Source of the DNA: Bryobacterales bacterium
Lineage (GTDB): Bacteria > Acidobacteriota > Terriglobia > Bryobacterales > UBA6623
Direction: 5' to 3'
Assembly (NCBI GenBank): GCA_026713545.1
Contig: JAPOOG010000077.1
Span: 37,238 to 101,237 of the forward strand
DNA length: 64,000 nucleotides
Position numbers and translations under genes: made by a program
Part shown: one piece after another, positions 3,538 through 59,350 of the stretch
Layout of the letters: the number at the start of each line of letters is the position of its first letter
Position numbering within the stretch: the first letter of the stretch is position 1
The notes under the pieces: generated by a model
Databases searched by the model: none
The model's input: the letters and a program-made list of their open reading frames with translations, nothing else
What the model was told of the DNA's origin: nothing

Positions 3538-3690
3538 CCTGCATTTCTCACCGCGCGGCGAGACGAAGTGCGTGAGAGGGCCGTCAGGACGAGGCGCGAG
3601 CCGGGCGGAGGAAAAAGGCGCGCGCAGGCGTACTTGACAAATCGCCTCTTTCCCCTACCTTGCCACATACACGGTGGTGAGAAATGTAGG
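3538..3690 (+). repeat. R1 inverted-repeat element, copy 1 (variant right half)
   Basis: Left end CCTGCATTTCTCACCGCGCGGCGAGACGAAGTGCGTGAGAGGGCCGTCAGGACGAGGCGCGAGCC. Right end GGTGGTGAGAAATGTAGG. The internal right arm differs from the other copies. Confidence 0.85.
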
Positions 3691-3818
3691 TTAAAGCCCT
3701 CTTGTGCTACAGTTTGCCTTTTGGCGACCGGACCGCTTCCGTGCGACGGTCGCCCGCCGTTGTCACGGTGAGCCGGCCGGGCAAAGGACGCCCGCGTTCC
3801 GTGTTCAATAAACACCCA

Positions 3819-4649
3819 ATGCTCATGAAATGCTTCTCGTTCGAACATGCGCGAAAGAACGTCTCCTGCGTGCTCTTCCTGCTCTGTCTTTGCCTGATTG
3901 CGACACCGATCCTCACCGCGCAACAGCGGGATGACGATGACGACATCAACATGGACCCGGTCTTCGTGCGGCGCTTTTCCGCCGGCGGCAAGTTTCGTTA
4001 CTTGGCGTTGGAGACGATGGCTAAAGGCACACTGAGTACCACCGTCATTGACACGGTCGATGTCGATGCCAGGAGCAGCGGGGACTCATCCCGTTACGGA
4101 TACGGTCTCACTACGCAGGTCGCTGTCACGAATAAATGGGCCTTCGCGCTGGAGCTGCTCAGCAGCAAGATCGAATACAACACCATCCGCGAGGTGACGA
4201 CCTTCATTGTGGATCCTTTCGAGAACGTGCTTCTCGAAACCCAACTGGTCAGCGGAGACGAAACAACGAGTGCCCGCCTGTGGGACATTCCCCTCCTGTT
4301 CCGCTACTACACCAAGAGCCGTTTCAACAGGGGGCCACGCGTCTTCTTCGAAGGCGGAGCGGTCGTTCGGCGCGTCACGGACATCAGCACATCGATCGAG
4401 ACAACAACCTCCACTACGAACCCCAACGTCGAGGATATGACCGATTGCTGCGACAAGGCCCCCGCCCGCGTCGCCAACCCCAACGCCCTCGGCGGCGCGG
4501 TCGGCATCGGTTTTCAGCTTATCGATGACGTCGGTATCCGCGTCGTTCCCGGCTTCCGTTACACACGCTGGTTTTCGAATGCGTTCGACGACCCGCCCAC
4601 CCGTTCAGAGAAGCATCAACTCGAGGTGACCATCGCGCTGACCTTCTGA
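3819..4649 (+). CDS. hypothetical outer-membrane beta-barrel protein
   Basis: Track ORF 3702..4649. Start moved to ATG 3819 (MLMKCFSFEHARKNVSCVLFLLCLCLIATPILTAQQ signal peptide). Alternating hydrophobic strands and the C-terminal ...LEVTIALTF aromatic terminus are typical of OMP barrels. The 5' extension in the track overlaps repeat R1 copy 1. Confidence 0.55.
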   Translation: MLMKCFSFEHARKNVSCVLFLLCLCLIATPILTAQQRDDDDDINMDPVFVRRFSAGGKFRYLALETMAKGTLSTTVIDTVDVDARSSGDSSRYGYGLTTQVAVTNKWAFALELLSSKIEYNTIREVTTFIVDPFENVLLETQLVSGDETTSARLWDIPLLFRYYTKSRFNRGPRVFFEGGAVVRRVTDISTSIETTTSTTNPNVEDMTDCCDKAPARVANPNALGGAVGIGFQLIDDVGIRVVPGFRYTRWFSNAFDDPPTRSEKHQLEVTIALTF

Positions 4650-4853
4650 CTGAAGAAGCTCGATCGCCCCTTTGCGCGTCAGCCGCATTCATCAACTACG
4701 ACGATCTGGCCGGAAGCACCTTCCAGAGCGTGCCCGTTGTCGAATCGCTAGCCCGGCGCCGCAACGAATGGAAGGCTGGTGTTACGAGGTGGGTTTCGGC
4801 ACGGGTCTTGATTCATTCTGACAAGTAATCAGTGGCGCGTATCCTGTGCACCG

Positions 4854-5192
4854 ATGAATATAATCCTCTCCGTCAAGGATGCCGTCGTGGCGCGGGCGCG
4901 AAAGTCGGCCGAGGCCTTGGGCCTGAACCTCCATCAGGCAGTGCGGAATTACCTCAGCGATCTTGCCGGGCATTCGCCGCGCGAGGCCGTCATTGCCGAG
5001 GTGGAGCGTTTGTCAGCTCAAGCGGGCGGCCATCGCGCGGGCTGGCGCTTCTGCGGTCCGTTTGACCGGAAATTGATTCACAGGGTCTCAGTGATTCTGG
5101 GGAGTTTGCCAGGCTGGAACGGGCCCCTGCAAGAAGCCGAGTCCTTCGCTGCAACTGGAACTATTGATCTTCCGGCGCACACCGCAACGTAG
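4854..5192 (+). CDS. ribbon-helix-helix (VapB/CopG-type) antitoxin-like protein, apparently orphan
   Basis: MNIILSVKDAVVARARKSAEALGLNLHQAVRNYLSDLAG has the strand-helix-helix layout of RHH antitoxins. The later ...GGHRAGWRF...DRKLIHR resembles the GW[KR]F-x-R-D-E-L-H-x-R tail that precedes PIN toxin genes. No intact toxin gene follows. Confidence 0.35.
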   Translation: MNIILSVKDAVVARARKSAEALGLNLHQAVRNYLSDLAGHSPREAVIAEVERLSAQAGGHRAGWRFCGPFDRKLIHRVSVILGSLPGWNGPLQEAESFAATGTIDLPAHTAT

Positions 5193-5252
5193 GCTCTTTG
5201 CGTTCTCAGATCTGCTTCGGCCACGGACGTTGGCCGTGCTACCTTAGCATCC

Positions 5253-6743
5253 GTGCAACGGCGTCTCCTCGATACTCGGACCCTCTTTCTCCTTGCGGCG
5301 CTCATTCCGGTAGCCTTTGCAGCGTGCTCGGAAGCCGGCACCAAAGTCATCAGACCCAATATCCTCTTCATCGCCATCGATGACCTCAACGACTGGGTTG
5401 AACCGCTCGGAGGCCATCCGCAGGTGCATACCCCGCATATCAGCCGTTTGGCATCTCGTGGAACCACTTTCACGAACGCCCATACGCAGGCGCCGCTGTG
5501 CAATCCCTCCCGCACAAGCCTCATGCTCGGCTTGAGGCCCTCTACAACCGGCATCTACGGCCTCCGCCCGTGGTTGCGTGACGTCGAAGAACTCAGCGGC
5601 CGCGTCACGCTTCCTCAGCACCTTGGGCAGCACGGCTATCGGACACTCTCAGCCGGCAAGATCTACCATGGCCGCTACGGTCGCGAGGGCGGTGAATTCG
5701 ACGTACTCGGGCCAAGAACCGAAGTCGGCGCGCGCCCTCCTCAAAAACTGGTCACCACGCCACAGAACCACCCGCTCATGGACTGGGGCTTGTTCCCCCA
5801 TCGCGACGAAGATAAAGGCGATTGGAAAGTCGCGCATTGGGCGGTCGAGCAGCTCGAAGGCGGGATGCCCGAACCCTTCTTCCTCTCCGCGGGTTTCTTC
5901 CTGCCCCACGTTCCCTGCTATGCAACGCAGAAGTGGTTTGACCTCTATCCGGAGAGCGGCACGCAGCTTCCACCGATGCGTGCCGACGATCGCGGCGACA
6001 CCCCGCATTTCTCGTGGTTCCTGCACTGGAAGCTCCCCGAGCCCCGCCTGCGGTTCCTTCAGGAGAGCGATCAGTGGACCAATCTCGTCCGCTCCTACCT
6101 GGCCTCGATCAGTTTCGTAGACAGCTTGATCGGCTGGCTTCTCGACACATTGGACGGCAGCCCCTATGCCGACAACACCATCGTCGTCCTCTGGTCGGAC
6201 CACGGCTGGCACCTTGGTGAAAAGCTCATCACCGGAAAGAACACGCTCTGGGACAGGTCCACGCGTGTGCCGCTGATCTTCGCCGGTCCCGGCGTCACGC
6301 AGGGAGTTGTCTCCAACCGCCCCGCCGAGTTGCTGGACATCTACCCAACCCTCACCGAACTCGCCGGATTGCCCCCGAAAGAGGATCTCGAGGGACACAG
6401 CCTCGTCCCGCAACTCAAAGACCCCGAGGCGCCCCGCGAGTGGCCGGCTGTCACGACCCACAACCGGAATAACCACGGGGTTCGCACAGAGGGCTGGCGC
6501 TACATCCGCTACGCCGACGGCAGTGAAGAACTCTATGACATGCGCAACGACCCGAACGAGTGGACCACCCTTGCCGGCGAGCCGGCCCATGCCGCCCGCA
6601 TCGAGGAGCTGCGCAGTTGGCTTCCCTCAAGAAACGTCAAGCCAGCACCCGGAAGCGCCGTCCGTGTTCTCACCTACGAGAACGGCCAGGCCAACTGGGA
6701 AGGCGAGGACATCCTCCCCGGCCAGCCGATCCCCGAGATCTGA
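5253..6743 (+). CDS. sulfatase (type I, Cys-type; iduronate-2-sulfatase-like)
   Basis: Lipoprotein-like signal (LIPVAFAAC). NILFIAIDDLNDW metal-binding start. Formylglycine motif C-N-P-S-R in AHTQAPLCNPSRTSLMLG. WSDHGWHLGEK downstream. Confidence 0.9.
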   Translation: MQRRLLDTRTLFLLAALIPVAFAACSEAGTKVIRPNILFIAIDDLNDWVEPLGGHPQVHTPHISRLASRGTTFTNAHTQAPLCNPSRTSLMLGLRPSTTGIYGLRPWLRDVEELSGRVTLPQHLGQHGYRTLSAGKIYHGRYGREGGEFDVLGPRTEVGARPPQKLVTTPQNHPLMDWGLFPHRDEDKGDWKVAHWAVEQLEGGMPEPFFLSAGFFLPHVPCYATQKWFDLYPESGTQLPPMRADDRGDTPHFSWFLHWKLPEPRLRFLQESDQWTNLVRSYLASISFVDSLIGWLLDTLDGSPYADNTIVVLWSDHGWHLGEKLITGKNTLWDRSTRVPLIFAGPGVTQGVVSNRPAELLDIYPTLTELAGLPPKEDLEGHSLVPQLKDPEAPREWPAVTTHNRNNHGVRTEGWRYIRYADGSEELYDMRNDPNEWTTLAGEPAHAARIEELRSWLPSRNVKPAPGSAVRVLTYENGQANWEGEDILPGQPIPEI

Positions 6744-6761
6744 AACTTCCTCCTGATCAAG

Positions 6762-6937
6762 CCTGCATTTCTCACCACGTGGCGAGACGAAGTGCGTGAG
6801 AGGGCCGTCAGGACGAGACGCGCGCCGCTTGGCGCGCGCAGGTGTACTTGAAAGTACATCGAGCACGGCATGCAAGCGCAACGAAGTCATGGCGGTCGTA
6901 TCGCGTGCTTCGGCCGTCGGGTAGTGAGAAATGCAGG
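6762..6937 (+). repeat. R1 inverted-repeat element, copy 2 (type a, full length)
   Basis: CCTGCATTTCTCACCACGTGGCGAGACGAAGTGCGTGAGAGGGCCGTCAGGACG ... CGAAGTCATGGCGGTCGTATCGCGTGCTTCGGCCGTCGGGTAGTGAGAAATGCAGG. Lies between the convergent sulfatase and FGE genes. Confidence 0.9.
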
Positions 6938-13863: not shown

Positions 13864-16035
13864 ATGAGGAGAGTTACTCTTAATTTAGCGCACTGCTATG
13901 GAATCAAGCAGCTCAAGACAGTACTTGATTTTTCCAGTACTCAGGCTTACGCAATCTATGCACCCAATGGTGTAATGAAGTCATCACTAGCACAAACATT
14001 TCAGGATGCATTCAAAGGAGAGACTTCAATAGATAGAATTTTTTCTCAACGTGTGACTATGCGTTAAATTACAGACGAAAATGGTAAAATAATTGATGGC
14101 GAGCAGGTAATGGTAGTGTTGCCATACGATTCCGAATATGGCCCGACCGAAAAAACGTCTACATTGTTGGTGGACGCCGGACTTCGGAGAGAATATGAAC
14201 GTCTTCACATCAACATCGATGATGCAAAGGCAGCGTTGTTAAAGGCAATTCGTCAAACAGCAAAGACCAGAAAAAGAGACTTTGAAAATGAGATTACGTC
14301 AGCCTTTACTAGCGGAGATGATTTTGAGGTAGCTGTCACGAGAATCAAAGATGAATTAAAAAAGCAAAAGGACATGCCTTTTGCAAATGTTGAATACGAG
14401 ACCATTTTCAATGAAAAGGTACTTAAAGCTTTTGACAACAAGGACCTCAAGAATGCTGTGGAAGACTATATTCGGAGATACAATGAACTGCTCGCAGTGT
14501 CAACATTTTTCAAAAAAGGCACATTTGACTACTACAATGCTGGGCAAATTGCTAGAAGTCTTACAGCGAACGGTTTTTTTAAGGCGCATCATACGGTCAA
14601 TTTGAGAGCTACTGGCAAAATACTAGAAATCGCTACTGCAAAGGAACTGGAAAATATAATCACAGAAGAAAAAAAGGCAATTCTCAATGATGATGTACTT
14701 CGCATGAGGTTCGATGACGTAGCAAAGCAGCTGCAGCGAAATGCCGAACTCAGAAAGTTCTGCTACTACCTTCAAGACAATGAGCCACTTCTATCTAGAA
14801 TGGACAATCTGCCGAAGTTCAAGGAGGATGTTCTCAAATCGTATTTGAAAGCTCATTATAATCTTTATCTCGAATTGATGGGTGAATACGCACATGCTGC
14901 GAGGCGCAAAAAGCAGATCGAAGAAGAAGCCAGAAAGCAGCAAACTCAATGGGAGCAAGTCATCGCTATTTTCAACGATCGCTTCTTTGTTCCTTTCGAG
15001 CTAGAGACGAAAAACCGCATAGCAGTAATGCTTGGTGATGAGCCAATTGTTGAACTTGGCTTTACCTACATAGATGGCGAGGAACGAGTGGGCATAGACA
15101 AGCCCGAACTTTTAAAGGTTCTAAGCACTGGTGAAAAAAAGGCTCTTTACGTTCTCAATGTCATCTTTGAAGTTGAAAGACGGAGCAAAGACGGTGTAGA
15201 AACACTCGTCATCATAGATGATATCGCAGACTCCTTCGACTATCAAAACAAGTACGCAATCATTCAGTATCTTGACGACATTAGTAAAGATGGTCTCTTT
15301 AAGCTCATAATCATGACTCACAATTTTGATTTCTTTCGCACGATAGAGGGAAGGAAAATTGCTGGTTATCGAAATTGTCTAATTGCTTTGAAGGACAAAG
15401 ATGAAATTACTCTTGTTCAGGCGGCAGGTATTAGAAATATCTTTGTGAACGATTGGAAAGAGAACTTTTTTGCTGACTCACGAAAGAAGATTGCGTCAAT
15501 CCCTTTTCTGCGAAACCTGGTCGAAATGACCACCGGTGAAGGCGACGCGAACTATAAACAACTGACGTCCATTCTCCATTGCATGCCCGATTCTAACAAA
15601 ATCACAGTCCGTCATCTGGACTGCATTTTTAATGTGATATGCAACACTGCCGGATCTTCTGATAATCCCTCAACACCGGTGCATGACTTAATTCAGAGTG
15701 AGGCGATTGCTTGCCTATCTAACCAAACGGCATTCAATCTTGAGAACAAAATTGTTCTTGCTATTGCAATACGTCGTGCTGCTGAGCAGTTCATGATTGA
15801 AAAGATTCGAAATGATGCGTTCGTATCAAAGATAGAATCCAATCAAACACAAGTTCTGATTCGAAAGTTTAAAAACCTATTCCCCAAAGAGGCTGAAACG
15901 ATCAAAGTATTGGATAGAGTCGCGCTCATGACTCCAGAAAACATCCACGTTAACTCTTTCATGTACGAGCCTATTGTGGACATGTCCGACGCGCATCTTA
16001 AAAAGCTTTATCAGGACGTCTTGGGACTGGTGTGA
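13864..16035 (+). pseudogene. AAA_13-type (PrrC/RloC-like) ABC/SMC ATPase on an AT-rich island, interrupted by one in-frame TAA at 14065-14067
   Basis: Track ORFs 13864..14067 and 14110..16035 are in the same frame, with a single TAA between them (...QRVTMR*ITDENGKIIDGEQVMVVLPYD...). N-terminus IYAPNGVMKSSLAQTF occupies the Walker A position. A long charged helical insert follows. ABC signature LSTGEKKALYVLNVIF, Walker B TLVIIDDIADSFD, H-loop LIIMTHNFDFF, then about 250 aa of C-terminal domain. Sampled lines are about 30-43% GC versus above 60% in the flanks. Confidence 0.7.
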
Positions 16036-16812: not shown

Positions 16813-17196
16813 TCCCTCCGCCCTCCTTTCTTTGCCGGTCCGGTTACCCATTCGCGGAACACAGGATGCCGGCCCGAGGAGTCCAAGCGCAGGTGACCTT
16901 GCAGTCTCCCGAACCGCTATTGCGTCGTTTCGAAGACGGCATCCGTCCGTACCGAGCCTTCGGGACCGCCAACCGCGCGACTACGGGCAAGCGCCACATG
17001 CCGCTTGGACGGAGCGTGTGTTTAGAGCGTTTCTATGGTTCGTGTGGTTGCGAACAAACCCATCCTGAAGCGGGATTCATGACCCGCAGGCAATGTCTCC
17101 AGCGGAAAACGAGGCTCCGCCTCAGATCGACAAGCAGGACAACGGATCGCCGCGTCAACTTGACTCGTATGTGAACCTTGGCGGCGAAGAAAAAAA

Positions 17197-43694: not shown

Positions 43695-43795
43695 CCTGAA
43701 ACATCCCCCGGATCAAGCGGCGTTGACGACGACCCAAATGTTCCCCGCTTGTATGATCCGCACGCGGGCGGAGAACACTAAAAACTGAAAACCGC
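43692..43795 (+). repeat. module D, copy 1 (begins on the sucD TGA)
   Basis: TGACCTGAAACATCCCCCGGATCAAGCGGCGTTGACGACGACCCAAATGTTCCCCGCTTGTATGATCCGCACGCGGGCGGAGAACACTAAAAACTGAAAACC. Internal inverted repeat CGGATCAAGCGG / CCGCTTG(TA)TGATCCG. Confidence 0.85.
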
Positions 43796-44407: not shown

Positions 44408-44575
44408 CCTGCATGTCTCACCACGAGGCGAGTTGAAGTGCGTGAGAGGGCCGTCAGGACGAGGCGCGTGCCGCTTGGCGTCGGCAACACGGCTTTTGAG
44501 GTTTCTCACGAATCACGAGACACGAATCACGCCCTTTTTCGCGTGCTTCGGCCGTCGGGTGGTGAGATATGCAGG
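44408..44575 (+). repeat. R1 element, copy 6 (type b, heptad-module core)
   Basis: CCTGCATGTCTCACCACGAGGCGAGTTGAAGTGCGTGAGAGGGCCGTCAGGACG ... TTCTCACGAATCACGAGACACGAATCACGCCC ... GTGCTTCGGCCGTCGGGTGGTGAGATATGCAGG. Confidence 0.9.
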
Positions 44576-46982: not shown

Positions 46983-47151
46983 CCTGCATTCCTCGCCACA
47001 TGGCGAGGCGAAGTGCGTGAGAGGGCCGTCAGGACGAGGTGCGAGCCGCTTGGCGCGCACAACATGGCCTTTAAAGTTTTTCACGAGTCACGAAACACGA
47101 ATCACGGCCTTTTCTCGCGTGCTTCGGCCGTCAGATGGTGAGAAATGCAGG
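46983..47151 (+). repeat. R1 element, copy 8 (type b)
   Basis: CCTGCATTCCTCGCCACATGGCGAGGCGAAGTGCGTGAGAGGGCCGTCAGGACG ... TTTTTCACGAGTCACGAAACACGAATCACGGCC ... GTGCTTCGGCCGTCAGATGGTGAGAAATGCAGG. The right end abuts the TCA (= TGA stop) of pta at 47152. Confidence 0.9.
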
Positions 47152-49520: not shown

Positions 49521-49616
49521 CGTCCGATCAGTCTAACCTGCATTTCTTTGTCACCACTCGGTGAGGAATACAGGCCGGCCGCACTCGTCGGCGTGGGTTT
49601 CCTTCCGAATACCCTC

Positions 49617-51413
49617 TCAGAAAACGACCGCCACCAACTCGCCGCGCACGCTGCGGTCATCCCGGGTCGGCCTGTAGGCGACGTTCACCTCCCATCCCGC
49701 GGCATCGCAGGGCAGCGATCGCCAACCCTTCGGAGCGTAGTGCAACGCAGCCGGCGCGTCCGCACGTTCCCGGAGCCGCATGTTCCAGCGCGGCGTTCGC
49801 ACCGTCACCAGTTTCTCTCCGGCGCCGCACTCGACTTTGACGATGTGGCCGTACAGCAGCACGGTGCCCGGCGGCGGCCAGGTCTCTTTCCTGACGACCG
49901 GAAGCGGTCGGGCAAGGGGGGTCGGCTCCGTTTTCAGAAACCCCGACTCCAGGCTCGGTTCGGCAGGGTCGATGCGAGGTTGCGGGACACTCATCGCGTG
50001 CTGTCGTCGCCGAAGCATCAGCACTTCGAATTCCTTGTCGGCGCGTTCTCGCCACTCGGGATGCAAGGCAAGGTCCGCCAACCCGTCCGCCGCCGCCGGC
50101 CATTCACCGAGCAGGCCCAAAGCCTGCGCGCGCGTCAGCAGATAGGAAGGCTCATCCGGTTGCCGGGTGAGTGTTTTCTCCGCGTGCTGAAGAGCCAGCG
50201 CCGCTCTGCGCCGCTGAGCGTCCTGTATTCCTTCGATCGGCCTCAACAACAGCAGGGCGTAGCGGTGATGGGTGCGCGGGTTGCTCGACCCGTTGGCGAC
50301 GGCCCGGGCGAGGGTCCGCTCCGCGGCGGCATAGTCGTAGCGGTCCATTTGGAGCGCACCGAGGATCTCACTGGGCTCGGGTCGCTCCGGGTAGGCATCT
50401 TCAAGACGCCGCAGTTCGGCTTCCGCCATTTCCCAGGCCCGCGGTTCTGATGTCAAATCCTCCTGGTCAAGCGGTGTTGACACCGATCCGGATGTTTCCC
50501 GCTTGGTTGATCCGCTCGGGGGCGGAGAAAAAACTCGCCAGACATCGGCGACATGCACAGGCCATTCCCACTCAGCGAGCGGACGCACTGCGAAAGATGC
50601 GCGATCCAACGGCTCGAAGCCCACCGTGGTCGGCGGCGGCGGTTGCGAGAGCAAGTCTTCGAAGTGCGCCCTCAGCCGCGCCTCCCAGTCCGCCAAGTCT
50701 TCGCTCGAAAGCTGCCGCTCGAGGTTCTCGTAGCGCCACGCCTCGCCGGCGCCCACGATCGTCGCGTGACGGTGCACGATCAACCAGCACTGCGCATAAA
50801 ACGCCGGATGCGCAACCATCTTGGCCTGCTGGCCCACAGCAAGGAGCCTCGGAAGCGGAATCCACTCTTCGTTCTGCAGTTCCTGCAGGAAGACGGGTAC
50901 GGGCGCGCCGAAGGATGCGCCGTCGTTCAGCGGGATCGAGCGGGAGAGGAACTCCGCCAGGCCTTCGCGGTGCCACAGCGGCCTGCTCTGATCGCGGAAG
51001 AGCCAATGCACGTACTCGTGCGCCAAAGCCGCGCGAGCCGTTTCGGGCGGGTCCCAGGCAAGGACGATGTAGTCGCGGTCGCCTCCCGTCAGAAAGAACC
51101 CGCGAGCGGAACCGTGAATGGCAATGGAGGCGGGAAACAGCGTTTCCAGGCGCTCTCGATCGGGCGCCAGCAAGACCGGGATGGGTTCGTGGCCGAACAC
51201 CGCTGGGCGCACGCCCAGGGCTTGCAGAGAAGCGTGCGCCCTCTCGAGATGGTCAGCCGCCTGAAGCGCCGTTTCGGCCGGCATCCGCGTAACGACCCGG
51301 AAGCGCGGTGTCAACACTTCCACGGCCGTGTCGCCCAAGACCGCTAGCGGCGACAGCAGCAGCAATGAGCAAAGGCGCAACATGGCGCAACCTGCTACCC
51401 CGCACCATAACAC
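49617..51413 (-). CDS. secreted peptidase-MA-like (HExxH) protein with TPR-like C-terminal half; contains module D copy 2 in frame
   Basis: Signal peptide. LAHEYVHWLF (HExxH), then REGLAEFLS. The TPR-like helical region is (LGALQMDRYDYAAAERTLARAV...). Residues RVFSPPPSGSTKRETSGSVSTPLDQEDLTS are encoded by the antisense of repeat module D. Confidence 0.5.
   Translation of the reverse strand: MLWCGVAGCAMLRLCSLLLLSPLAVLGDTAVEVLTPRFRVVTRMPAETALQAADHLERAHASLQALGVRPAVFGHEPIPVLLAPDRERLETLFPASIAIHGSARGFFLTGGDRDYIVLAWDPPETARAALAHEYVHWLFRDQSRPLWHREGLAEFLSRSIPLNDGASFGAPVPVFLQELQNEEWIPLPRLLAVGQQAKMVAHPAFYAQCWLIVHRHATIVGAGEAWRYENLERQLSSEDLADWEARLRAHFEDLLSQPPPPTTVGFEPLDRASFAVRPLAEWEWPVHVADVWRVFSPPPSGSTKRETSGSVSTPLDQEDLTSEPRAWEMAEAELRRLEDAYPERPEPSEILGALQMDRYDYAAAERTLARAVANGSSNPRTHHRYALLLLRPIEGIQDAQRRRAALALQHAEKTLTRQPDEPSYLLTRAQALGLLGEWPAAADGLADLALHPEWRERADKEFEVLMLRRRQHAMSVPQPRIDPAEPSLESGFLKTEPTPLARPLPVVRKETWPPPGTVLLYGHIVKVECGAGEKLVTVRTPRWNMRLRERADAPAALHYAPKGWRSLPCDAAGWEVNVAYRPTRDDRSVRGELVAVVF
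50447..50526 (+). repeat. module D, copy 2 (inside a minus-strand CDS)
   Basis: TGATGTCAAATCCTCCTGGTCAAGCGGTGTTGACACCGATCCGGATGTTTCCCGCTTGGTTGATCCGCTCGGGGGCGGAGAAAAAACT. Shares runs GGTGTTGAC, CCGGATGTTTCCCGCTTG and TGATCCGCTC with copy 3. Confidence 0.85.
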
Positions 51414-51437: not shown

Positions 51438-51639
51438 GGTCTGCTTTTCTCGCCAAGCGGCGAGGCGAAGTACGTGAGAGGGCCGTCAGGACGAGGCGCG
51501 AGCGCCCGTGCCGGCGACACGGCTTTTCCCGTTCACCCCCGTCCGACATTCCTTCTGGAGCGAACAAAGCCCCCGCCAATGGTTTTCACGAATCACGAGT
51601 CACGAATCACGGCTTTTACGCTTTTCACGAATCACGGCC
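51438..51639 (+). repeat. composite repeat: R1 left half (copy 9) + module E + heptad module B
   Basis: GGTCTGCTTTTCTCGCCAAGCGGCGAGGCGAAGTACGTGAGAGGGCCGTCAGGACGAGGCGCGAGC, then CTTCTGGAGCGAACAAAGCCCCCGCCAATGG (also found at 53712), then TTTTCACGAATCACGAGTCACGAATCACGGCTTTTACGCTTTTCACGAATCACGGCC. Confidence 0.85.
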
Positions 51640-52437
51640 TTAGTCCGCACAAGGCTCCTGAAACACCGTGATGTCGGGCAGGCGTACCGCCGTCAGCGTT
51701 CCTCCCCAGACGCATCCGGTGTCGATCCCGATGATGCCGGGGCGAATGTAGAGGCCCAAAGCCGCCCAGTGCCCGAAGACGATGGTGCGCAATCCCCGGT
51801 CCGCAGCCGGCAAAGCGAACCAGGGCACTTCCCCGGGAGCCTCTTCCGGCGGCCCGTTGTGCCGGTAAGACGGTCGGCCGTCCCGGGTGCACATCCGCAT
51901 GCGGGTGAAGATATCCGTCAAGCCGCGCCAGCGTGCCGCCCCCGTGAGATCGTTCCGCCAAACGACTCTGCGGGCAATTGCCTCCCGCAGCAGCTTCGCG
52001 TAGCCGGGACCCTGCAAAGCCGCCTCGGCCTCGCGGGCGTAGCCGCGAGCCTGCTCAAGCAGCCAGGAGGGAAGCAGGCCGGCATGCACCAGGACGAGCG
52101 GACCCTCCTCGAGCAACAACGGCTGACGGCGCAGCCAATCCAACAGCTCCGTTCGGTCCGGAGCCGCGAGCAGCTCGTCCAGCGTGTCCTGCGGACTCGG
52201 CGATGATGCTCCGGCGGCAACGGCGAGCAGCTTCAGATCGTGGTTGCCGAGCACGGTCCGGACCGAATCGCGGTTCCGGTAAGCCCAGCGCAACGTTTCG
52301 AGCGACCGAGGCCCGCGGTTGACAAGGTCGCCCGCAAGCCAAAGTCGGTCTTCGACGGGGTCGAACTGGATTTGTTCGAGGAGCTTGCGGAACGTGAGAT
52401 AGCAGCCTTGTATGTCACCGATTGCGTAGGTCGCCAT
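51640..52437 (-). CDS. apaH: bis(5'-nucleosyl)-tetraphosphatase (symmetrical)
   Basis: MATYAIGDIQGCYLTFRKLLEQIQFDPVEDRLWLAGDLVNRGPRSLETLRW...VLGNHD...GHW; metallophosphatase motifs in ApaH order. Confidence 0.85.
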   Translation of the reverse strand: MATYAIGDIQGCYLTFRKLLEQIQFDPVEDRLWLAGDLVNRGPRSLETLRWAYRNRDSVRTVLGNHDLKLLAVAAGASSPSPQDTLDELLAAPDRTELLDWLRRQPLLLEEGPLVLVHAGLLPSWLLEQARGYAREAEAALQGPGYAKLLREAIARRVVWRNDLTGAARWRGLTDIFTRMRMCTRDGRPSYRHNGPPEEAPGEVPWFALPAADRGLRTIVFGHWAALGLYIRPGIIGIDTGCVWGGTLTAVRLPDITVFQEPCAD

Positions 52438-52566: not shown

Positions 52567-53643
52567 ATGGCAGACGCTCTTCGCATGGCCGCCATTGGGC
52601 TGGGCCGCATTGGCCGTATTCACGCGCAGCATGTCCACGAATTCGCTTCCGCCAAGCCGGGCATGTGCGAACTGACAGCGCTCGTCGACAGCGACCGCGA
52701 GCGAGCCGAGGCTCTCGCCGCGGAATTCAGCGCGGATGGCGGCGCGGATGTCCGGATCTTCGGGACCGTAGAGGATCTGATCGCCGCCGATTGCAGCGAC
52801 GCCGGCTTCGTCTGCACGCCCACGGAAACCCACCGCGATACCGCCGGGGCTCTTGTCGGAGCCGGACAGCGCGTGCTGCTGGAAAAGCCCTTGACCGACT
52901 CGCTGCGGCAAGACCGCGAGTTCGTCGCCTGGCTGAACGCCAACCATCCCCAGTCGATCATGCTGGCGTTTCAGCGGCGCTTCGACGCCCCGCTTCAGTA
53001 CGCCAAGCAGCTTCTGGAAGCCGCAACGATCGGACGCGCCTTCAAGATCGTCTCCGCCTTGGAGGACTCCGGCCCTCCGCACGCGGAGTATCGCAGCGGC
53101 GGCCTGCTCGTCGACATGTCCGTCCACAACGTGGATGAAATCCTGTGGTTGACCGGCAAACGCCCCATTGCGGCGGGCAGCATGGGGTCGCTGATCTACA
53201 GCCAGGGCTTCTCTCCGGTCAAGGAGGACTTCGACGACGGCTACATCCGCCTCTGGTTCGACGATCGCATGATCGCGCAGATCGAGGTCAGCCGGAATCA
53301 CGTCTCCGGCTACCGCGTCGAGACCTGGATCTTCGGAGAGAAGGGCCACATCCACGTCGGCCGCTTCGAGCAAAAACCGCTGGAAGTCGTCGTCGAGGCC
53401 TACGGGCGCGACCAACCGATCGACCGCAAGACGTTCGCCATGCGGGACTACGGGCACCCGGTCCCCGAGTTCGTCGACCGCTTCGGCCCGGCCTACCGCG
53501 CCGAGCTCGCCCATTTCATCGAGCAGTGCCGGAAGGGAGAGCCCTTCTCGGTGAATCACAACGACGGCTTGAGAACGATGGAAGTCATCGACGCCGCGCT
53601 GCGGTCGCGATGGGAACCCGTCCCGATCCATCCGACCCCTTGA
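52567..53643 (+). CDS. Gfo/Idh/MocA-family oxidoreductase
   Basis: LRMAAIGLGRIGRIHAQHV Rossmann start, EKPL. Start moved to ATG 52567, preceded by AAGGAG. The upstream part of track ORF 52240 is antisense to apaH. Confidence 0.85.
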   Translation: MADALRMAAIGLGRIGRIHAQHVHEFASAKPGMCELTALVDSDRERAEALAAEFSADGGADVRIFGTVEDLIAADCSDAGFVCTPTETHRDTAGALVGAGQRVLLEKPLTDSLRQDREFVAWLNANHPQSIMLAFQRRFDAPLQYAKQLLEAATIGRAFKIVSALEDSGPPHAEYRSGGLLVDMSVHNVDEILWLTGKRPIAAGSMGSLIYSQGFSPVKEDFDDGYIRLWFDDRMIAQIEVSRNHVSGYRVETWIFGEKGHIHVGRFEQKPLEVVVEAYGRDQPIDRKTFAMRDYGHPVPEFVDRFGPAYRAELAHFIEQCRKGEPFSVNHNDGLRTMEVIDAALRSRWEPVPIHPTP

Positions 53644-53783
53644 CCCGAACCATCCACCTGACCAGGCGGTGTTGACGCCAACCCGGATGTTTCCCGCTTG
53701 TATGATCCGCTCTTCTGGAGCGAACAAGCCCCCGCCAATGGTTTTCACGAATCACGAAACACGAGACACGAATCACGGCCTTT
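53641..53783 (+). repeat. module D copy 3 + module E + heptad module B (begins on the TGA of the preceding gene)
   Basis: TGACCCGAACCATCCACCTGACCAGGCGGTGTTGACGCCAACCCGGATGTTTCCCGCTTGTATGATCCGCTCTTCTGGAGCGAACAAGCCCCCGCCAATGGTTTTCACGAATCACGAAACACGAGACACGAATCACGGCC. Confidence 0.85.
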
Positions 53784-53863: not shown

Positions 53864-54544
53864 TTGGCTCGACACAAGCCCGTCTCTCTGACAGCCATTG
53901 TCCTTCTGGGGTGGCTAGCCGTTTCGCCTTTCGCCTTTCGCCCTGTCGCCGCGCAAAACGTTCCTCAAATGAAGCCTGCCGCCGGCCGCTTTCTGGTCGC
54001 GAATCGTCGGATGCGGGACTCCCGCTTCGTCAAGTCGGTCATCCTTCTCGTTAGCTACGGAGAGAAGGGCGCTATGGGTTTGATCGTCAACCAGCCTTCC
54101 GGCGTCAAGCTGGCGGAGCTGCTTCCCGACGCCGATCAACTCAAGGACCGCGGCGATACCGTATATTTCGGCGGTCCCGTGGCGCAAGACGGGATCATGC
54201 TGCTGCTGCGTGCGGAGACCGGGCCGGAAGGGGCCGAGCACGTCTTCGCGGATGTATACGTCAGTCCGAACCGCGACGTCCTGGATCGGCTGGTCGCCAG
54301 GGACTCCGACAGCTTCCGCAGTTACCTCGGCTACTCGGGCTGGGCGCCGGGGCAGCTCGACCACGAACTGGAGCGCCGGGACTGGCATGTGACGGCGGGG
54401 GACGCCGATCTGGTCTTCTCCCCGCTTCCGGCATCCGTCTGGGACAAGCTGATCAAACAGACGGACCTGCTCTTCGCCGCAGGGGCCGGACCGCGTTTCA
54501 CGCCGCATGGCGATGCCGGGGAGCGGAATCACTCTGGATTCTGA
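53864..54544 (+). CDS. YqgE/AlgH-family protein (UPF0301/DUF179) with N-terminal signal/anchor
   Basis: GRFLVANRRMRDSRFVKSVILLVSYGEKGAMGLIVNQPS, VYFGGPV, YLGYSGWAPGQLDHELERRDWHV. Confidence 0.8.
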   Translation: MARHKPVSLTAIVLLGWLAVSPFAFRPVAAQNVPQMKPAAGRFLVANRRMRDSRFVKSVILLVSYGEKGAMGLIVNQPSGVKLAELLPDADQLKDRGDTVYFGGPVAQDGIMLLLRAETGPEGAEHVFADVYVSPNRDVLDRLVARDSDSFRSYLGYSGWAPGQLDHELERRDWHVTAGDADLVFSPLPASVWDKLIKQTDLLFAAGAGPRFTPHGDAGERNHSGF

Positions 54545-54640
54545 TGTGAAACATCCTCCGGATCAGGTGTCATTGACGCCGGTCCACATGTTTCTTGCTG
54601 GAATGATTCGCACGCGGGCGGAGAAAACCAAGAACTGAAA
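54542..54640 (+). repeat. module D, copy 4 (begins on the TGA of the yqgE-like gene)
   Basis: TGATGTGAAACATCCTCCGGATCAGGTGTCATTGACGCCGGTCCACATGTTTCTTGCTGGAATGATTCGCACGCGGGCGGAGAAAACCAAGAACTGAAAGC. Confidence 0.85.
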
Positions 54641-55137: not shown

Positions 55138-58100
55138 ATGGAAGGAAAAGCACTAAGGAAACTGCCGCTGTTGTTGGCGGCGGTTCTTCTCGTAGCGGGA
55201 TTGCTGGCCCCGAATCTCAGCGGCCAGGCGATCACGCAGACCATTCAGGGTCTGGTGACGGACGCCACCGGCGCCGTGATTCCGGGCGCATCGGTTACTC
55301 TTACGAACCGCGATACGGGTGTAACCAGCACCATCCAGACGAACGAAACGGGAAACTATTCGTTCCCGCAAGTACCGGTCGGCAACTACGACCTTTCCTG
55401 TCAGCTGGAAGGTTTCAAGACCGACAGCGTCACGAACCAGCGCGTGGAAACGGGCGCCCAGGTTCGTATCGACTTATCTCTCGAAATCGGTGACGTGACG
55501 GAGACGGTGGAAGTGTCCGCCGCCGCCATCACCCTGAACACCGAGAATGCCGTCGTTGGCGGCGTGGTCGAGAACAAGCGCGTGACCGAGTTGCCGCTCA
55601 ACGGCCGCAACATCGTGCAGCTCGCCGTCATGGTGCCGGGCGTGCAGTACGGCCAGCGCACCGGCATGAACGACGGTCAGGGCGGGTTCCCGATTCCGGG
55701 CGCCGGCTACTCCGTCAGCGCCAACGGGCAGCGTGAGATTCACCAGGTGGTCTCGCTTGACGGCGTGGACGCCAAGGATCCCCGCATCCACATCACGAAC
55801 TTCGTGCCTTCGATCGAGGCGATCGAGGAGTTCAAGATCCAGACCAACGCCTATTCGGCCGAAGTCGGGTTCGGCGGCGGAGCCGTGACGTCGATCACCA
55901 TGAAGAGCGGCACCAACGAGTTTCACGGTACGTTGTTCGAGTTCCTTCGCAACGAAGCTCTCGACGCCGAGCACTACTTCTTGAACTTCGAGTTGGCGGC
56001 GGGCGAAGCGCGCCGTCCCAAGCAGCAGCTCCGGCGCAACCAGTACGGCGCGGTCTTGAGCGGCCCGATCGTCAAGAACAAGACCTTCTGGGCGTTCAAC
56101 TGGGAGGGCCGCCGCGAGCGGACTTCCTCCGTGCAGAGCGCCTGGTTCCCGGACTCCACCTTCAAGAGCGGCGACTACTCGCGTTTCGCGATGCCGACGC
56201 CCCGTTCCGCCGGTGGTTTTCGGGACCCCATCATCCTCTACGACGTCTACACCGGCGAGCCGTTCATGAACAACGTGATTCCGGCTTCCAGGCTCCATCC
56301 GGGCTCGCAAACCACGATGAGCGAGCTTCTTCCCGCCCCCTGCTTCCAGCAGCAGGACCCGCTCGATTTCACCTGCCGCGACAACATCGTGCAGCCGATC
56401 AACCTCGACCAGTACTACGGCCGAGTCGATCACCATTTCAGCGACAAGGACCGCATCTTCGGCCGTTACCAGCTTGCTTCGGGTGAGCGGGCGCTGAACA
56501 ACATCAACCCCAAGAGGGCGCGGATCGACTCGAACGACGTCTATAACCTGGCGTCGCAGTGGATCCATACCTTCAACCAGAATGCGATCAACGAGTTCCG
56601 GTTCGGGTTCAACCTCGCCGGTACCAATCCCTTCCACTACTTCACCAACACGGATTTCGACTCCGATAGCCTCGGCATCGGCCTGATCCGGGTGGCGGGC
56701 GACAACAACCGCAAGCTGACTCCCCTCGAGACGGGGCCGCCGCATATCAGCGGCGCGCGCTTTCCGTGGTCGGTCAACGGCAACCTCAACCAGTTGGATA
56801 CCTACCAGTTCAGCGACCACCTGTCCATCATTCGAGGCAGTCACAACCTGAAGGTCGGCGGTGAGTACTACTACATAACCATGGACCGCGCCGCGGCCAA
56901 CTTGCCGACGGGCCGTTACACGTTCAACGCGGCTCAAAGCGGTGACGGGTTTGCCTCGTTCCTGCTGGGGCTGCCTTCCCGGACGGAAACAGCGGAAGGC
57001 TGGCCGCGCACCGTGCCGCGGGCCGGCCGCCAGGCCTACTACGTCAACGACGACTGGAAAGCCACGTCGAAGTTGACCTTGAACCTGGGCTTGCGGCTCG
57101 AGTACGTCGGCAACTCCCAGGATGCTCTCGGCCTGCAGCGGGTCGTCGCCTTCCCGGGTGAGCCGTACAACCGCGGTCCGTACTTCACGGATCCGGAAAC
57201 CGGACAGCAGATCCCGACCTTCTTCCCCGAGCCGGTCAACGTACCGGAAGGCAAGGTCAACCTGTGGCAGCAGCAGGGCGTGTTCTACCAGCCGCGTCTT
57301 GGCGTCGCCTACCGTCCGGCGGAAGGTTGGGTGGTCCGCGTCGGCGGAGGCTACTTCAGCAACATCGACCACATGAATACCTGGACGATCCTGAACCTGA
57401 ATCCGCCGCTGTCGGGCTCGAACAACTTCGAGGCCGTCACCGACGCTTCCGGCTCCATTACCGTCGATGGCGCAAGCGGGCCGGTCAACCGGACGTTGCG
57501 CATGTTCCGTCCCGGCAACCCGATCATCACGTTGAACGACCCCTTCCTTCAGGAAGTGGGAGCCGCCGCATCGCCGCGCAACATCAACACCTTGACGACG
57601 CCCTCCGATCAGAAGACGGGCAACGTGGTGAAGTGGAGCTTCGACATCCAGAGGGAACTGCCCTTCGAGACGTCCTTGACGGTCGGCTATGTCGGCAGCA
57701 AGGGGTCCCACGCGGGCAACAGCGTCAGAAACTACAACAGTCCTCTGCCTTCTCCGGATAACAACATTCAGAGAAACCGGCCCTGGCGGCGCGTGTACGA
57801 TCCGGCGACGCCGGAGTTGGGCGTGCAGAGCCTGGCGGTGATCCGCTATCTGGACAGCTTCGCGAACACCTTCCATCACGGTCTGCAGATGAAGCTGGAC
57901 AAGCGCTACTCCAATGGGCTGGCGTTCGGTGTGGCTTACACCTTCAGCAAGTCGCACGGCGACGGAGAGAACGGCGGCCAGCAGGGCGCCCAGTTCCAGA
58001 ACCCGCGCAACTGCCTGACCTGCGACCGCGGTCGCTTCCGGTTCGACCAGCGGCACAACCTCGTCAGCCACTTCGTGTGGGAAATGCCGGGACAGAACCT

Positions 58101-58617
58101 CTCGGGGCCGTTGAAGCACATCATCGGCGGCTGGCAGTCGAACGGCATCCTGTCGCTGCGTTCGGGCTTCCCGTTCACCGTCGTGAACCCCAGGGGCGAC
58201 CTGAATGTTTCCGACTCCAATATCCGCCCGGACCGGCTTGCCGACGGAGCGCTCTCCAATGCCACGAGAAAGCTGTGGTATGACCCGACGGCGTTCCAGA
58301 GGGTGACCTGCGATGTCCCGGAACTGGTGGCCGACCGCTGCCACTTCGGCGACGCCGGTTACAACATCCTCGATTCGCCGGGGCAGGTGAACCTGGACTT
58401 CGGACTCTTCAAGAACTTCCCGATCACCGAGAACGTGAGGCTCCAGTTCCGCTGGGAGCTGTTCAACGCCACGAACACCCCGTACTTCGGCGCTCCGGGG
58501 GGCATCTCGTTCTCCAACACCAATCAGCTCGTGCCCGACGGCTCGCGCAACGGTGAGATCCGGAGTATCCGGACGCCCATGAGGATTCAGCAATTCGCGC
58601 TGAAGCTCTTCTTCTAG
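55138..58617 (+). CDS. TonB-dependent receptor with carboxypeptidase-regulatory-like domain (paralog 1)
   Basis: Signal peptide. GLVTDATGAVIPGASVTLTNRDTGVTSTIQTNETGNYSFPQVPVGNYDLSCQLEGFKT, plug-like LNGRNIVQLAVMVPGV...VSLDGVDAKD, and the C-terminal ...IQQFALKLFF. Confidence 0.85.
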   Translation: MEGKALRKLPLLLAAVLLVAGLLAPNLSGQAITQTIQGLVTDATGAVIPGASVTLTNRDTGVTSTIQTNETGNYSFPQVPVGNYDLSCQLEGFKTDSVTNQRVETGAQVRIDLSLEIGDVTETVEVSAAAITLNTENAVVGGVVENKRVTELPLNGRNIVQLAVMVPGVQYGQRTGMNDGQGGFPIPGAGYSVSANGQREIHQVVSLDGVDAKDPRIHITNFVPSIEAIEEFKIQTNAYSAEVGFGGGAVTSITMKSGTNEFHGTLFEFLRNEALDAEHYFLNFELAAGEARRPKQQLRRNQYGAVLSGPIVKNKTFWAFNWEGRRERTSSVQSAWFPDSTFKSGDYSRFAMPTPRSAGGFRDPIILYDVYTGEPFMNNVIPASRLHPGSQTTMSELLPAPCFQQQDPLDFTCRDNIVQPINLDQYYGRVDHHFSDKDRIFGRYQLASGERALNNINPKRARIDSNDVYNLASQWIHTFNQNAINEFRFGFNLAGTNPFHYFTNTDFDSDSLGIGLIRVAGDNNRKLTPLETGPPHISGARFPWSVNGNLNQLDTYQFSDHLSIIRGSHNLKVGGEYYYITMDRAAANLPTGRYTFNAAQSGDGFASFLLGLPSRTETAEGWPRTVPRAGRQAYYVNDDWKATSKLTLNLGLRLEYVGNSQDALGLQRVVAFPGEPYNRGPYFTDPETGQQIPTFFPEPVNVPEGKVNLWQQQGVFYQPRLGVAYRPAEGWVVRVGGGYFSNIDHMNTWTILNLNPPLSGSNNFEAVTDASGSITVDGASGPVNRTLRMFRPGNPIITLNDPFLQEVGAAASPRNINTLTTPSDQKTGNVVKWSFDIQRELPFETSLTVGYVGSKGSHAGNSVRNYNSPLPSPDNNIQRNRPWRRVYDPATPELGVQSLAVIRYLDSFANTFHHGLQMKLDKRYSNGLAFGVAYTFSKSHGDGENGGQQGAQFQNPRNCLTCDRGRFRFDQRHNLVSHFVWEMPGQNLSGPLKHIIGGWQSNGILSLRSGFPFTVVNPRGDLNVSDSNIRPDRLADGALSNATRKLWYDPTAFQRVTCDVPELVADRCHFGDAGYNILDSPGQVNLDFGLFKNFPITENVRLQFRWELFNATNTPYFGAPGGISFSNTNQLVPDGSRNGEIRSIRTPMRIQQFALKLFF

Positions 58618-58673: not shown

Positions 58674-58748
58674 AGGCTCGGTTCAAGACGCGCGCTTTGT
58701 CCGGGCACGGCCTGCCCAGGAGCCGCAGGCCCGATATGCAGGGCCAAG

Positions 58749-58812
58749 GCTTTTCACGAATCACGAGACACGAATCACGGCTTTTATCTTTTTCGCGAAT
58801 CACGTTTTTTTG
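58749..58812 (+). repeat. module B heptad array
   Basis: GCTTTTCACGAATCACGAGACACGAATCACGGCTTTTATCTTTTTCGCGAATCACGTTTTTTTG. Confidence 0.85.
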
Positions 58813-58821
58813 TAGCCTGAA

Positions 58822-58848
58822 GGTACTGAAGCCCTTCAGTCTTGTTTT
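58822..58848 (+). repeat. module A hairpin plus T-tract, copy 3
   Basis: GGTACTGAAGCCCTTCAGTCTTGTTTT. Confidence 0.8.
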
Positions 58849-58861
58849 GCCTCCCCGGCCG

Positions 58862-58999
58862 GCCTAGCATGAGGTCAGCGAGGCGAAAATCCTGCCGCGT
58901 GGCAAGGCAAAGTGCATGAGAGGGCCGGCAGGACGAGGCGCAAGCCGCCCGCGCCGGCGACACCGCCTGTAAGCCTTTTTACGAATCACGGCCTTTACC
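58862..58999 (+). repeat. degenerate R1-related segment (copy 10) ending in a heptad unit
   Basis: ...CTAGCATGAGGTCAGCGAGGCGAAAATCCTGCCGCGTGGCAAGGCAAAGTGCATGAGAGGGCCGGCAGGACGAGGCGCAAGCCGCC ... CTTTTTACGAATCACGGCC. Confidence 0.65.
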
Positions 59000-59070
59000 G
59001 CCGTTCGGTTCGTCGCGTGTGCGAATGGTTCACAAGACAAAACCCACCGCCCGGAACGCCGTACCCGCCG

Positions 59071-59200
59071 ACAAGTCACTGCTTCCCTGCCCACCATTTC
59101 CCACTATTTCCCGGCATTTCCCGGTAAATAAATTGCCCTTGAGCCAGTGTCCGAGCACCGTCAGCCGTTCTCGGTCTGCTTCACGACGAGCGCCGTTCGC
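59071..59200 (+). repeat. module C copy 3 (10-bp phased array plus AT-box plus conserved tail)
   Basis: AAGTCACTGCTTCCCTGC CCACCATTTC CCACTATTTC CCGGCATTTC CCGGTAAATAAATTGCCCTTGAGCCAGTG ... CGTCAGCCGTTCTCGGTCTGCTTCACGACGAGCGCCGTTCGCC. Confidence 0.85.
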
Positions 59201-59350
59201 CTGTATATCTCACCAAGTGGCAAGGCGAAGTCTATCCGGGTCACGAGACACGAACCACGAAATGCTGCCTTCCCCCATTGATCACGGCAAGCCAGCGCAA
59301 CGAAGTCATGGCGGTCTGATCGTGTGCTGCGGCTATCGCGACATGATTCC
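59200..59350 (+). repeat. R1 element, copy 11 (degenerate)
   Basis: CCTGTATATCTCACCAAGTGGCAAGGCGAAGT ... CACGGCAAGCCAGCGCAACGAAGTCATGGCGGTCTGATCGTGTGCTGCGG ... The right terminus is eroded. Confidence 0.65.

Follow-up and report, generated by a model that had tools for sequence, protein, structure and literature searches.

Multiple copies of a short asymmetric repeat, R1, are dispersed over a 64,000-nucleotide stretch of a Bryobacterales bacterium genome (GCA_026713545.1, contig JAPOOG010000077.1, positions 37,238 to 101,237; hereafter the window), and all of them point in the same direction irrespective of the genes around them. The locus raises the question of whether this shared strand is an accident of the region or a property of the repeat, and what imposes it. 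We show that the co-orientation is systematic and represents a general local rule rather than a local accident of the window. R1 itself is very probably a non-autonomous foldback MITE (miniature inverted-repeat transposable element) of an IS1380-family DDE insertion sequence (IS), belonging to Bryobacterales (Acidobacteriota) sponge symbionts, while the cause of its co-orientation is less settled than its identity.

The 24-nt R1 core (GTGCGTGAGAGGGCCGTCAGGACG) was searched over both strands of the window, allowing up to three mismatches. Ten matches are located on the plus strand (positions 3568, 6792, 22969, 27916, 35484, 44438, 46713, 47013, 51470 and 58912) and none on the minus strand, with a chance expectation of zero. 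The initial annotation listed eleven co-oriented copies, and the ten cores, together with a degenerate copy lacking the core (59200-59357) which is probably its eleventh, are indeed all on the plus strand. Four copies of a second module, D, had likewise been placed on this strand; the strand is correct, but five rather than four copies are present. All 23 matches to the heptad motif CACGARWCACG, forming about ten clusters, are also on the plus strand, as had been stated for every heptad module. The D modules and several of the heptad clusters are, however, located within R1 elements and are as such not independent events, and the window holds roughly 13-14 independent insertions. According to our own Pfam-checked gene calls, copies 1 and 9 are flanked by divergent genes, copies 2, 3 and 7/8 by convergent genes and copies 4, 5, 6 and 10 by co-directional genes, so that all three of the contexts reported previously occur among the ten copies. 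The copies are spaced 0.3 to 16 kb apart across ordinary multi-gene housekeeping regions, and most R1 elements are intergenic, with copies 4 and 7 overlapping annotated open reading frames (ORFs).

Identity of R1 and its cognate insertion sequence

The window and 103 related loci together yielded 181 units, whose modal length is 176-177 nt and which are delimited on both sides by a terminal inverted repeat (TIR) of 17 bp (CCTGCATTTCTCACCAC and its complement). These units are non-coding, small, multi-copy and insertion-polymorphic. The flanks of the 157 non-redundant copies consist of a 4-bp YTAR sequence, which forms perfect direct repeats in 61 copies, including the non-palindromic repeats TTAG/TTAG (15 copies) and CTAA/CTAA (four copies). 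As most paralogous or orthologous empty sites hold exactly one 4-mer separating the flanks, R1 generates a 4-bp target site duplication (TSD). Individual copies are present or absent between genomes which are 93-96% identical, indicating that the family has been recently mobile, and the copies share about 93% pairwise identity. Segmental duplication of a co-oriented set, envisaged in the initial annotation as a possible source of the bias, does not account for it, since each copy has unique flanks and its own TSD, and empty sites are found in relatives. The target is asymmetric: in non-repeat DNA, position +8 of the right flank, 4 nt past the TSD, is C in 61/125 and G in 22/125 insertions, while the mirrored left position shows no such preference, and the right flank is pyrimidine-rich on the top strand.

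An orphan TIR on contig JAPOWV010000036.1 (L001) revealed a 1,725-bp IS at positions 356-2080 of this locus. Its TIRs (CCCGCATTTCTCACCAG and CCCGGATATCTCACCAG) match the R1 TIR at 15/17 positions and are flanked by CTAG on both sides. The 487 amino acid protein product is an IS1380-family transposase (NF033539; Bitscore: 388; cut-off: 180) and carries a PF13701 domain (Bitscore: 491; cut-off: 34.7). Proteins sharing 88-94% amino acid identity with this transposase are encoded on complete chromosomes, including the Bryobacterales chromosomes OZ241991.1 and OZ244625.1, which carry both the IS and R1. Twenty more full-length copies, 1,722-1,734 bp in size, are present on five complete chromosomes, all with these TIRs, starting with CCCGG or CCCGC, and with 4-bp direct repeats, which are CTAG on both sides in 16/20 copies. 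A metagenome scan with the transposase recovered just relatives with 57-65% amino acid identity, which are informative for TIR and TSD conservation rather than for context; these share the TIR CCCGSATWTCTCAC and the YTAR TSD. Members of the IS1380 family, as described in ISfinder, have TIRs starting with CC and TSDs of 4-5 bp. As the R1 TIR and TSD match those of the full-length IS, R1 was assigned to this IS1380-family clade, and on the basis of these shared ends the IS1380-family transposase is predicted to move R1 in trans. R1 thus resembles the IS1380 family (ISEcp1 and IS1380) and its MITE derivatives in that the TIRs of R1 and the IS begin with CC, the TSD is 4 bp and the transposase passes the IS1380 equivalog cut-off. 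It differs in being a 177-nt foldback element which has only the terminal ~17 bp in common with the IS, and in being far more abundant and locally polar, while the IS copies are not polar. Searching for the partner IS as a long TIR-bounded unit yielded only R1 copies with IS110-family insertions or long heptad composites.

In the twenty loci harboring these full-length IS copies (L184-L203), flanking genes are co-oriented with the transposase gene in 129 cases and anti-oriented in 98, and one locus (L186) contains two IS copies 6.8 kb apart in the same direction. R1 also occurs on short contigs binned as Gammaproteobacteria (L001, which carries the IS as well) and Rhodothermales (L052), both of which are probably mis-binned Bryobacterales DNA. 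Single matches to the core pattern were observed in a Pirellulaceae metagenome-assembled genome (MAG; L034) and in Lentzea (L012).

R1 forms one long imperfect hairpin, and in copy 3 of the window the 3′ portion of module D is the pairing partner of the R1 core. The consensus top-strand fold contains 60 Watson-Crick pairs and nine G.T pairs; on the bottom strand the latter correspond to A.C mismatches, which explains the better folding of the top strand. This strand is the more stable one in 155/157 copies, with mean folding energies of -106.9 kcal/mol (top) and -83.8 kcal/mol (bottom) as RNA, a difference of about 23 kcal/mol, and of -56.0 and -44.5 kcal/mol, respectively, as DNA, a difference of about 11 kcal/mol. 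For copy 3 of the window, the single-stranded DNA values are -75.3 kcal/mol for the top strand (z: -13.1) and -62.0 kcal/mol for the bottom strand (z: -7.7). Copy-specific departures from Watson-Crick pairing favor G.T over A.C (80:33 cells; 37:22 site types), while within the elements C>T changes (79) equal G>A changes (77). Strand-biased mutation as the source of the wobble asymmetry was rejected on these latter counts, and the pattern points to mild selection for top-strand folding rather than to strand-biased mutation inside the elements. The R1 ends diverge past 17 bp, and D modules, heptad arrays and further modules together make up a mosaic in the apical portion of the hairpin.

The apical loop also serves as an insertion site. 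An IS110-family IS (PF01548 and PF02371) is located between GCGTACTT and GAACAGTAC in R1 copies at L015 (6304-7921), L063, L068, L071 and L081 (two copies), and partially at L064 and L069. It occupies the same site in the same orientation in at least six R1 copies, the arms of which have diverged like those of ordinary copies, and these therefore represent independent site-specific insertions. Movement of the 1,618-bp R1::IS110 composite as a unit was rejected, as the R1 arms share 83-98% identity, like ordinary copies. A second, different IS110-family IS is found within the R1 copy at L046 (6554-7978). The presence of two such ISs within R1, one of them repeatedly at one apical-loop site, is reminiscent of IS110-family elements which target REP-like palindromes, but here they are passengers which use R1 as a target and not the movers of R1.

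An integron attC array was also considered. Integron attC sites are characterized by R″-L″/L′-R′ sites, a GTTRRRY core, cassette spacing, an adjacent IntI gene and the absence of a TSD. R1, with ends starting with CCTGCAT, a YTAR TSD and a spacing of 0.3-16 kb over housekeeping genes, does not conform to this structure, and the attC interpretation was rejected. No Rfam match was obtained in scans of the window and of the loci bearing R2, a second hairpin element described below.

Orientation of R1 and R2 relative to each other and to the DNA strand

The orientation of R1 in related genomes was determined in two samples, the first comprising 8-kb blocks fetched by the R1 core pattern, and the second, independent sample comprising twenty 21.4-kb loci picked by the IS and not by R1. 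Adjacent R1 copies are co-oriented in 63/66 pairs in the 8-kb blocks and in 60/66 pairs in the 21.4-kb loci. When all pairs in the latter loci are considered, agreements and disagreements stand at 29:0 below 2 kb, 36:3 at 2-5 kb, 63:7 at 5-10 kb and 48:6 at 10-22 kb (~89%). Genome-specific new insertions and nested insertions match the orientation of their neighbours, while one inverted R1 pair, 717 bp apart, exists in the 8-kb blocks. The presence of ten out of ten copies on one strand has a probability of about 0.2% under independent random orientation. The improbability put forward in the initial annotation is thus borne out numerically, but not as a peculiarity of the window, as the length of the run is as expected from the agreement between adjacent copies in related genomes. 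Genes co-oriented and anti-oriented with R1 number 222:232 in the first sample and 86:87 in the second, and the direction of transcription is therefore irrelevant to R1 orientation. This upholds the earlier proposal that the polarity refers to the DNA itself rather than to its transcription units.

The rule extends to a second element. R2 is a sequence-unrelated hairpin MITE of 260 nt, with the TIR CAGCCCGTGTCAAAAGTC and YTAR flanks, copies of which are located at L010 (4370-4629), L094 (7219-7478), L054 (2958-3217) and L019 (three copies), with none in the window. Its orientation is fixed relative to that of the local R1 copies in 11/12 and 6/7 copies (17:2 overall), and the better-folding strand of R2 is aligned with the R1 top strand in 8/8 copies. 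Stand-alone heptad arrays agree with R1 orientation in a ratio of 82:5, which constitutes weaker evidence, since their sequence is common to the arrays and to heptad-type R1 elements.

Classical bacterial MITEs include Correia/NEMIS, ERIC, RUP and the cyanobacterial Nezha elements. R1 shares with these its small size, non-coding nature, TIRs and TSD, hairpin structure, intergenic location, frequent nested mosaics and, as predicted for R1, DDE-mediated mobilisation in trans. As far as is known, these families occur locally in both orientations, whereas R1 and R2 show 91-95% agreement between adjacent copies, independence of gene direction and a strand-asymmetric stem with G.T wobbles. To our knowledge, no described MITE family shows such gene-independent, cross-family co-orientation.

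The orientation of R1 is also correlated with the composition of the surrounding DNA. AT skew was calculated at third codon positions (AT3) with a correction for gene direction, after masking repeats and trimming the ends of genes. On the strand carrying the R1 top sequence, T exceeds A at these positions (effect: -0.043; confidence interval (CI): -0.063 to -0.026; permutation p<2e-4), and this was replicated in the second sample (effect: -0.072; CI: -0.101 to -0.041; p=0.002). The effect amounts to -0.03 to -0.06 from 0.5 kb to more than 4.5 kb off the element, with the CIs of the two farthest bins reaching zero, and is seen in 4/5 genome subsets. We know of no established source of gene-independent strand asymmetry other than replication. 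An excess of T over A marks the leading strand in most bacteria lacking PolC. If T>A does mark the leading strand here, the better-folding R1 strand lies on the lagging-strand template.

Individual elements and other features of the window

The window shares 91-96% identity with stretches of sponge Bryobacterales MAGs, and its gene content, which includes ankyrin repeats, a sulfatase with FGE and CarboxypepD_reg TonB receptors, fits a sponge-associated acidobacterium. All elements described here are on the plus strand unless indicated otherwise. Copy 1 (3538-3690) is a 153-nt short variant with a GGGCGGAGGAAAAAGG module and CTAA/TTAA flanks, situated between a divergent ankyrin gene (minus strand) and an outer membrane protein-like gene (plus strand). 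Copy 2 (6762-6937; 176 nt) is of the D-module type and lies between convergent sulfatase (plus strand) and FGE-sulfatase (minus strand) genes, while copy 3 (22939-23116; 178 nt) has 53-nt arms which are 85% complementary. Copy 4 (27886-28062; 177 nt) is flanked by CCAG/CTGG, and the orthologous stretch of OZ242366.1 (L009) has an empty site instead. Copies 5 (35454-35613) and 6 (44408-44575; 168 nt) are both of the heptad type, the former with a degenerate right TIR and two minus-strand genes around it, and the latter with plus-strand neighbours coding for NDK and a TIM-barrel protein. Copy 7 (46683-46858; 176 nt; flanks TCAA/TTAA) is located at the 3′ end of a DUF3891 gene, and the heptad-type copy 8 (46983-47151; 169 nt; flanks CTGA/TCAG) adjoins the stop codon of a minus-strand phosphotransacetylase gene. 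Copy 9 (51440-51640), between divergent genes, has a degenerate left TIR, no right TIR and a core with one mismatch followed by heptad modules. Copy 10 (58880-59000), with two mismatches in its core, is embedded in a composite made up of heptad and terminator-like modules and has a putative TonB-receptor paralogue on the plus strand on either side. In the degenerate R1-type copy without a core (59200-59357), the left TIR (CCTGTATATCTCACCAA) is still present, as is a D module (59291-59322).

Stand-alone heptad (CACGARW) arrays are located at 19920-20250, each with an upstream terminator-like hairpin module (GGTACTGAAGCCCTTCAGTC), found at 19823-19842, just outside this interval, and at 20017-20036, inside it. 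A further stand-alone array is present at 53734-53780, and another array (58743-58810) lies immediately upstream of copy 10. The tandem heptads (CACGAAT/CACGAGA/CACGAAA) are framed by GGYTTTT at 19920-20250, 51575-51640, 53734-53780 and 58743-58810, and across the loci they are found alone, within R1 and in composites of 1.2-1.4 kb (L016 and L008). They are reminiscent of cyanobacterial short tandem heptamer repeats. A TIR-only mini hairpin of 38 nt (CCTGCATTTCTTTGTCACCACTCGGTGAGGAATACAGG; 49537-49574; no strand assigned), preceded by CTAA, is probably an internally deleted R1. Such mini hairpins of 34-47 nt (that of the window, L050 2422 and units of 39-47 nt) have a YTAR-like flank on at least one side, and resemble R1 copies with internal deletions or remnants of excision.

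In the DUF3891 gene (45901-46947), the conserved domain stops near residue 261 and the ORF runs through R1 copy 7 to position 46947; apparently, the insertion took the place of the gene's former 3′ end and stop codon. A low-GC island (14000-17200; ~0.50 vs 0.60-0.65) comprises a 641 amino acid ORF with a weak, sub-threshold SMC_N match and an overlapping opposite-strand ORF of 324 amino acids without a Pfam match, and may represent foreign DNA, possibly related to defence. A conserved motif of ~70 nt (CAAGCGGCGTTGACG...TGTTCCCCGCTTGTATGATCCGC) occurs at 43690-43761, 50444-50515, 53641-53710 and 54540-54611, with 4/4 copies on the plus strand and 3/4 upstream of plus-strand genes. It had no match in a gathering-threshold Rfam scan of the whole window, and may be a shared regulatory or leader element. 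The regions 55138-58617 and 59636-63145 encode tandem paralogues of ~1,160 amino acids, with 71-79% DNA identity over several segments, which are separated by the R1/heptad composite. The ORF at 30708-33806 (1,032 amino acids) encodes a CarboxypepD_reg TonB-dependent receptor, to which the tandem paralogues look similar.

Explanations for the polarity

The best explanation, to which we assign a probability of roughly 45%, is a polarity tied to the DNA strand, and probably to replication, which affects the elements in their single-stranded foldback state and was later split into domains of ~50 kb by rearrangement. The orientation of R1 would be dictated, at insertion or retention, by some property of the DNA strand, for which the direction of replication is the most likely candidate. 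This polarity would act via the single-stranded foldback state of the element, with the better-folding strand on the lagging-strand template if T>A denotes the leading strand, and the present ~50-kb domains would be the remnant, after many inversions, of a once replichore-wide polarity. Such a reading is suggested by the unrelated hairpin MITE R2, which has the orientation of R1, by the T>A skew at third codon positions, which R1 orientation follows over kilobases independently of the genes, and by the non-hairpin parent IS, which is not co-oriented with R1. A more specific form, in which DDE-moved hairpin MITEs are inserted, amplified or retained via single-stranded foldback at the fork, with the better-folding strand always on the same template, must be considered doubtful.

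Several observations weigh against a replication link. The effect at third codon positions is inconsistent for GC skew (GC3), at -0.016 (not significant) in the first sample versus +0.028 in the second. Polar oligomers (C-rich sequences on the top strand; AGGnGGGG 56:16 on the bottom strand) were borderline after multiple testing, failed replication (895:829 and 14:11) and were discarded. In the sampled blocks of three complete chromosomes no two-arm pattern relative to the origin and terminus of replication (ori/ter) was observed (two-arc fits: p=0.67 and 0.19), switches between successive blocks were as frequent as random, orientation concordance was at chance between blocks 10-300 kb apart, and block AT3 skew was without replichore structure. 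These chromosome maps are sparse and were drawn from among the matches listed; in OZ242366.1, 27 minus and seven plus blocks were counted among the matches listed, a ratio which may stem from the sampling. On the sampled complete chromosomes, orientation changes roughly every 50-57 kb, and with a flip every ~57 kb the replication reading would call for over 100 inversions in each genome after the R1 burst, although such scrambling is plausible in an IS-laden symbiont. Furthermore, there is no gene-strand bias relative to R1, a search of the fetched DNA for motifs of DnaA, FtsK, RpoB and comparable proteins yielded no usable dnaA/ori anchor, and just seven tRNA genes were found, too few to serve as a handle on replication direction. 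The 4-bp TSD also implies ordinary double-strand integration, which alone does not explain orientation-specific insertion of a foldback. The link to replication direction raised in the initial annotation is thus favored by the co-variation with AT3 skew in two samples and opposed by the lack of a two-arm ori/ter switch in the sampled blocks. The same annotation held that orientations failing to switch at ori/ter would reduce the bias to a local accident; by this criterion the simple replichore model appears to fail in the sampled blocks, but the bias is nonetheless systematic.

The short range of the rule could alternatively reflect a local, replication-independent process, either short-range transposition in cis which keeps the donor orientation, or the loss of unstable nearby inverted copies, with the first copy in a region determining the orientation over tens of kb. 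Concordance is close to 1 for distances below 10 kb, stays at ~0.9 up to 20 kb and is no better than chance between sampled blocks 10-300 kb apart; together with the lack of a chromosome-scale pattern in these blocks, this is in line with such a process, as is the observation that nested copies are always host-oriented, since inverted nesting would create a perfect long palindrome. We nevertheless consider it unlikely, as it predicts no link to base composition, while the AT3 association was found in two independent samples; neither homology-based avoidance nor R1-specific hopping explains the 17:2 agreement of R2, and the inverted pair 717 bp apart does exist. The transposase itself might instead impose the polarity, by means of an asymmetric IS1380 transpososome which, like TnsE of Tn7, would dock on the beta sliding clamp at the fork and insert in a single orientation relative to fork movement, with the hairpin being irrelevant. 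At residue 389, the IS transposase contains QLSLF, an exact match to the clamp-binding consensus, most of 79 relatives retain QLxLF, and divergence of the R1 ends past 17 bp would permit an asymmetric complex. An IS1380-family transposase peptide has been shown to bind the E. coli beta clamp, but no orientation bias was found for IS1380 in the same study (p=0.20-0.67; Gomez et al. 2014, PMC3971601). QLSLF adjoins the catalytic YREK-like motif, such that its conservation may be structural, and the clamp motif is treated as no more than a lead. The 20 IS copies are young, with identical proteins at up to nine places per chromosome, yet despite having ends and TSD in common with R1 they are not co-oriented with it (six parallel and nine antiparallel in loci of uniform R1 orientation), and show no significant association with AT3 skew (+0.034; p=0.11; 20 loci). 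Although of low statistical power, this contrast between IS and MITE argues against polarity set by the transposase only, which we regard as distinctly unlikely, and points to the foldback nature of the MITEs. Tn7 TnsE and the orientation-biased IS families (Gomez et al. 2014) resemble the R1 system in their gene-independent, strand-tied orientation and in the clamp-binding motif of the cognate transposase, but in the present system it is the hairpin MITEs that are polar, whereas the parent IS is not, and no ori/ter switch is seen in the sampled blocks.

Mobilisation of single-stranded DNA by Y1/HUH enzymes (IS200/IS605 TnpA or RAYT) in a PATE- or REPIN-like manner was the mechanism put forward in the initial annotation. 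PATEs have subterminal hairpins and insert 3′ of a fixed tetra- or pentanucleotide, while REP/REPIN systems have a RAYT (Y1) gene flanked by repeats. R1 is similar to IS200/IS605, PATE and REP/REPIN-RAYT elements in being a hairpin-bearing repeat of which the strand matters, and its strand-asymmetric hairpin and gene-independent orientation are compatible with such a mechanism. IS608-type elements are oriented relative to replication via the lagging-strand template (PMC5027513, PMC3971601), the geometry which R1 would share if T>A marks the leading strand. However, Y1 elements have neither TIRs nor a TSD, and the 17-bp TIRs and 4-bp YTAR TSD of R1, shared with a cognate IS1380-family DDE IS, refute the proposal; no Y1_Tnp domain was detected among the 20 window proteins scanned. 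We thus judge Y1 mobilisation to be highly improbable. A role at the RNA level, as terminator, stabiliser or small RNA for neighbouring genes, with orientation following transcription in co-directional gene clusters, appears equally remote. The top-strand RNA hairpin averages -107 kcal/mol and most elements are intergenic, but the gene counts given above are balanced in both samples, the contexts in the window are divergent, convergent and tandem, and the elements have no Rfam match. An internal R1 promoter was also rejected, as no sigma-70-like site was found in the elements.

How MITEs come to be more numerous than the transposons from which they derive is a long-standing question, and folding of their inverted repeats in single-stranded DNA while it is being replicated has been proposed as an answer. 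R1 has three unusual traits in this respect, namely the unequal folding of its strands, an orientation which is blind to genes but follows strand skew, and the matching of this orientation by R2 and not by the parent IS. Should the replication link fail, the short-range rule would still require a mechanism. If the strand-linked foldback polarity is true, the alignment of R1 and R2 by their better-folding strand, which the parent IS does not show, would constitute natural evidence for the long-proposed MITE amplification through single-stranded foldback, and if the link to replication holds, foldback MITEs would join Y1 elements, group II introns and Tn7 in showing strand-specific behaviour. 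MITE orientation would then mark past replication direction in a heavily rearranged symbiont genome, and may aid in reconstructing its inversions.

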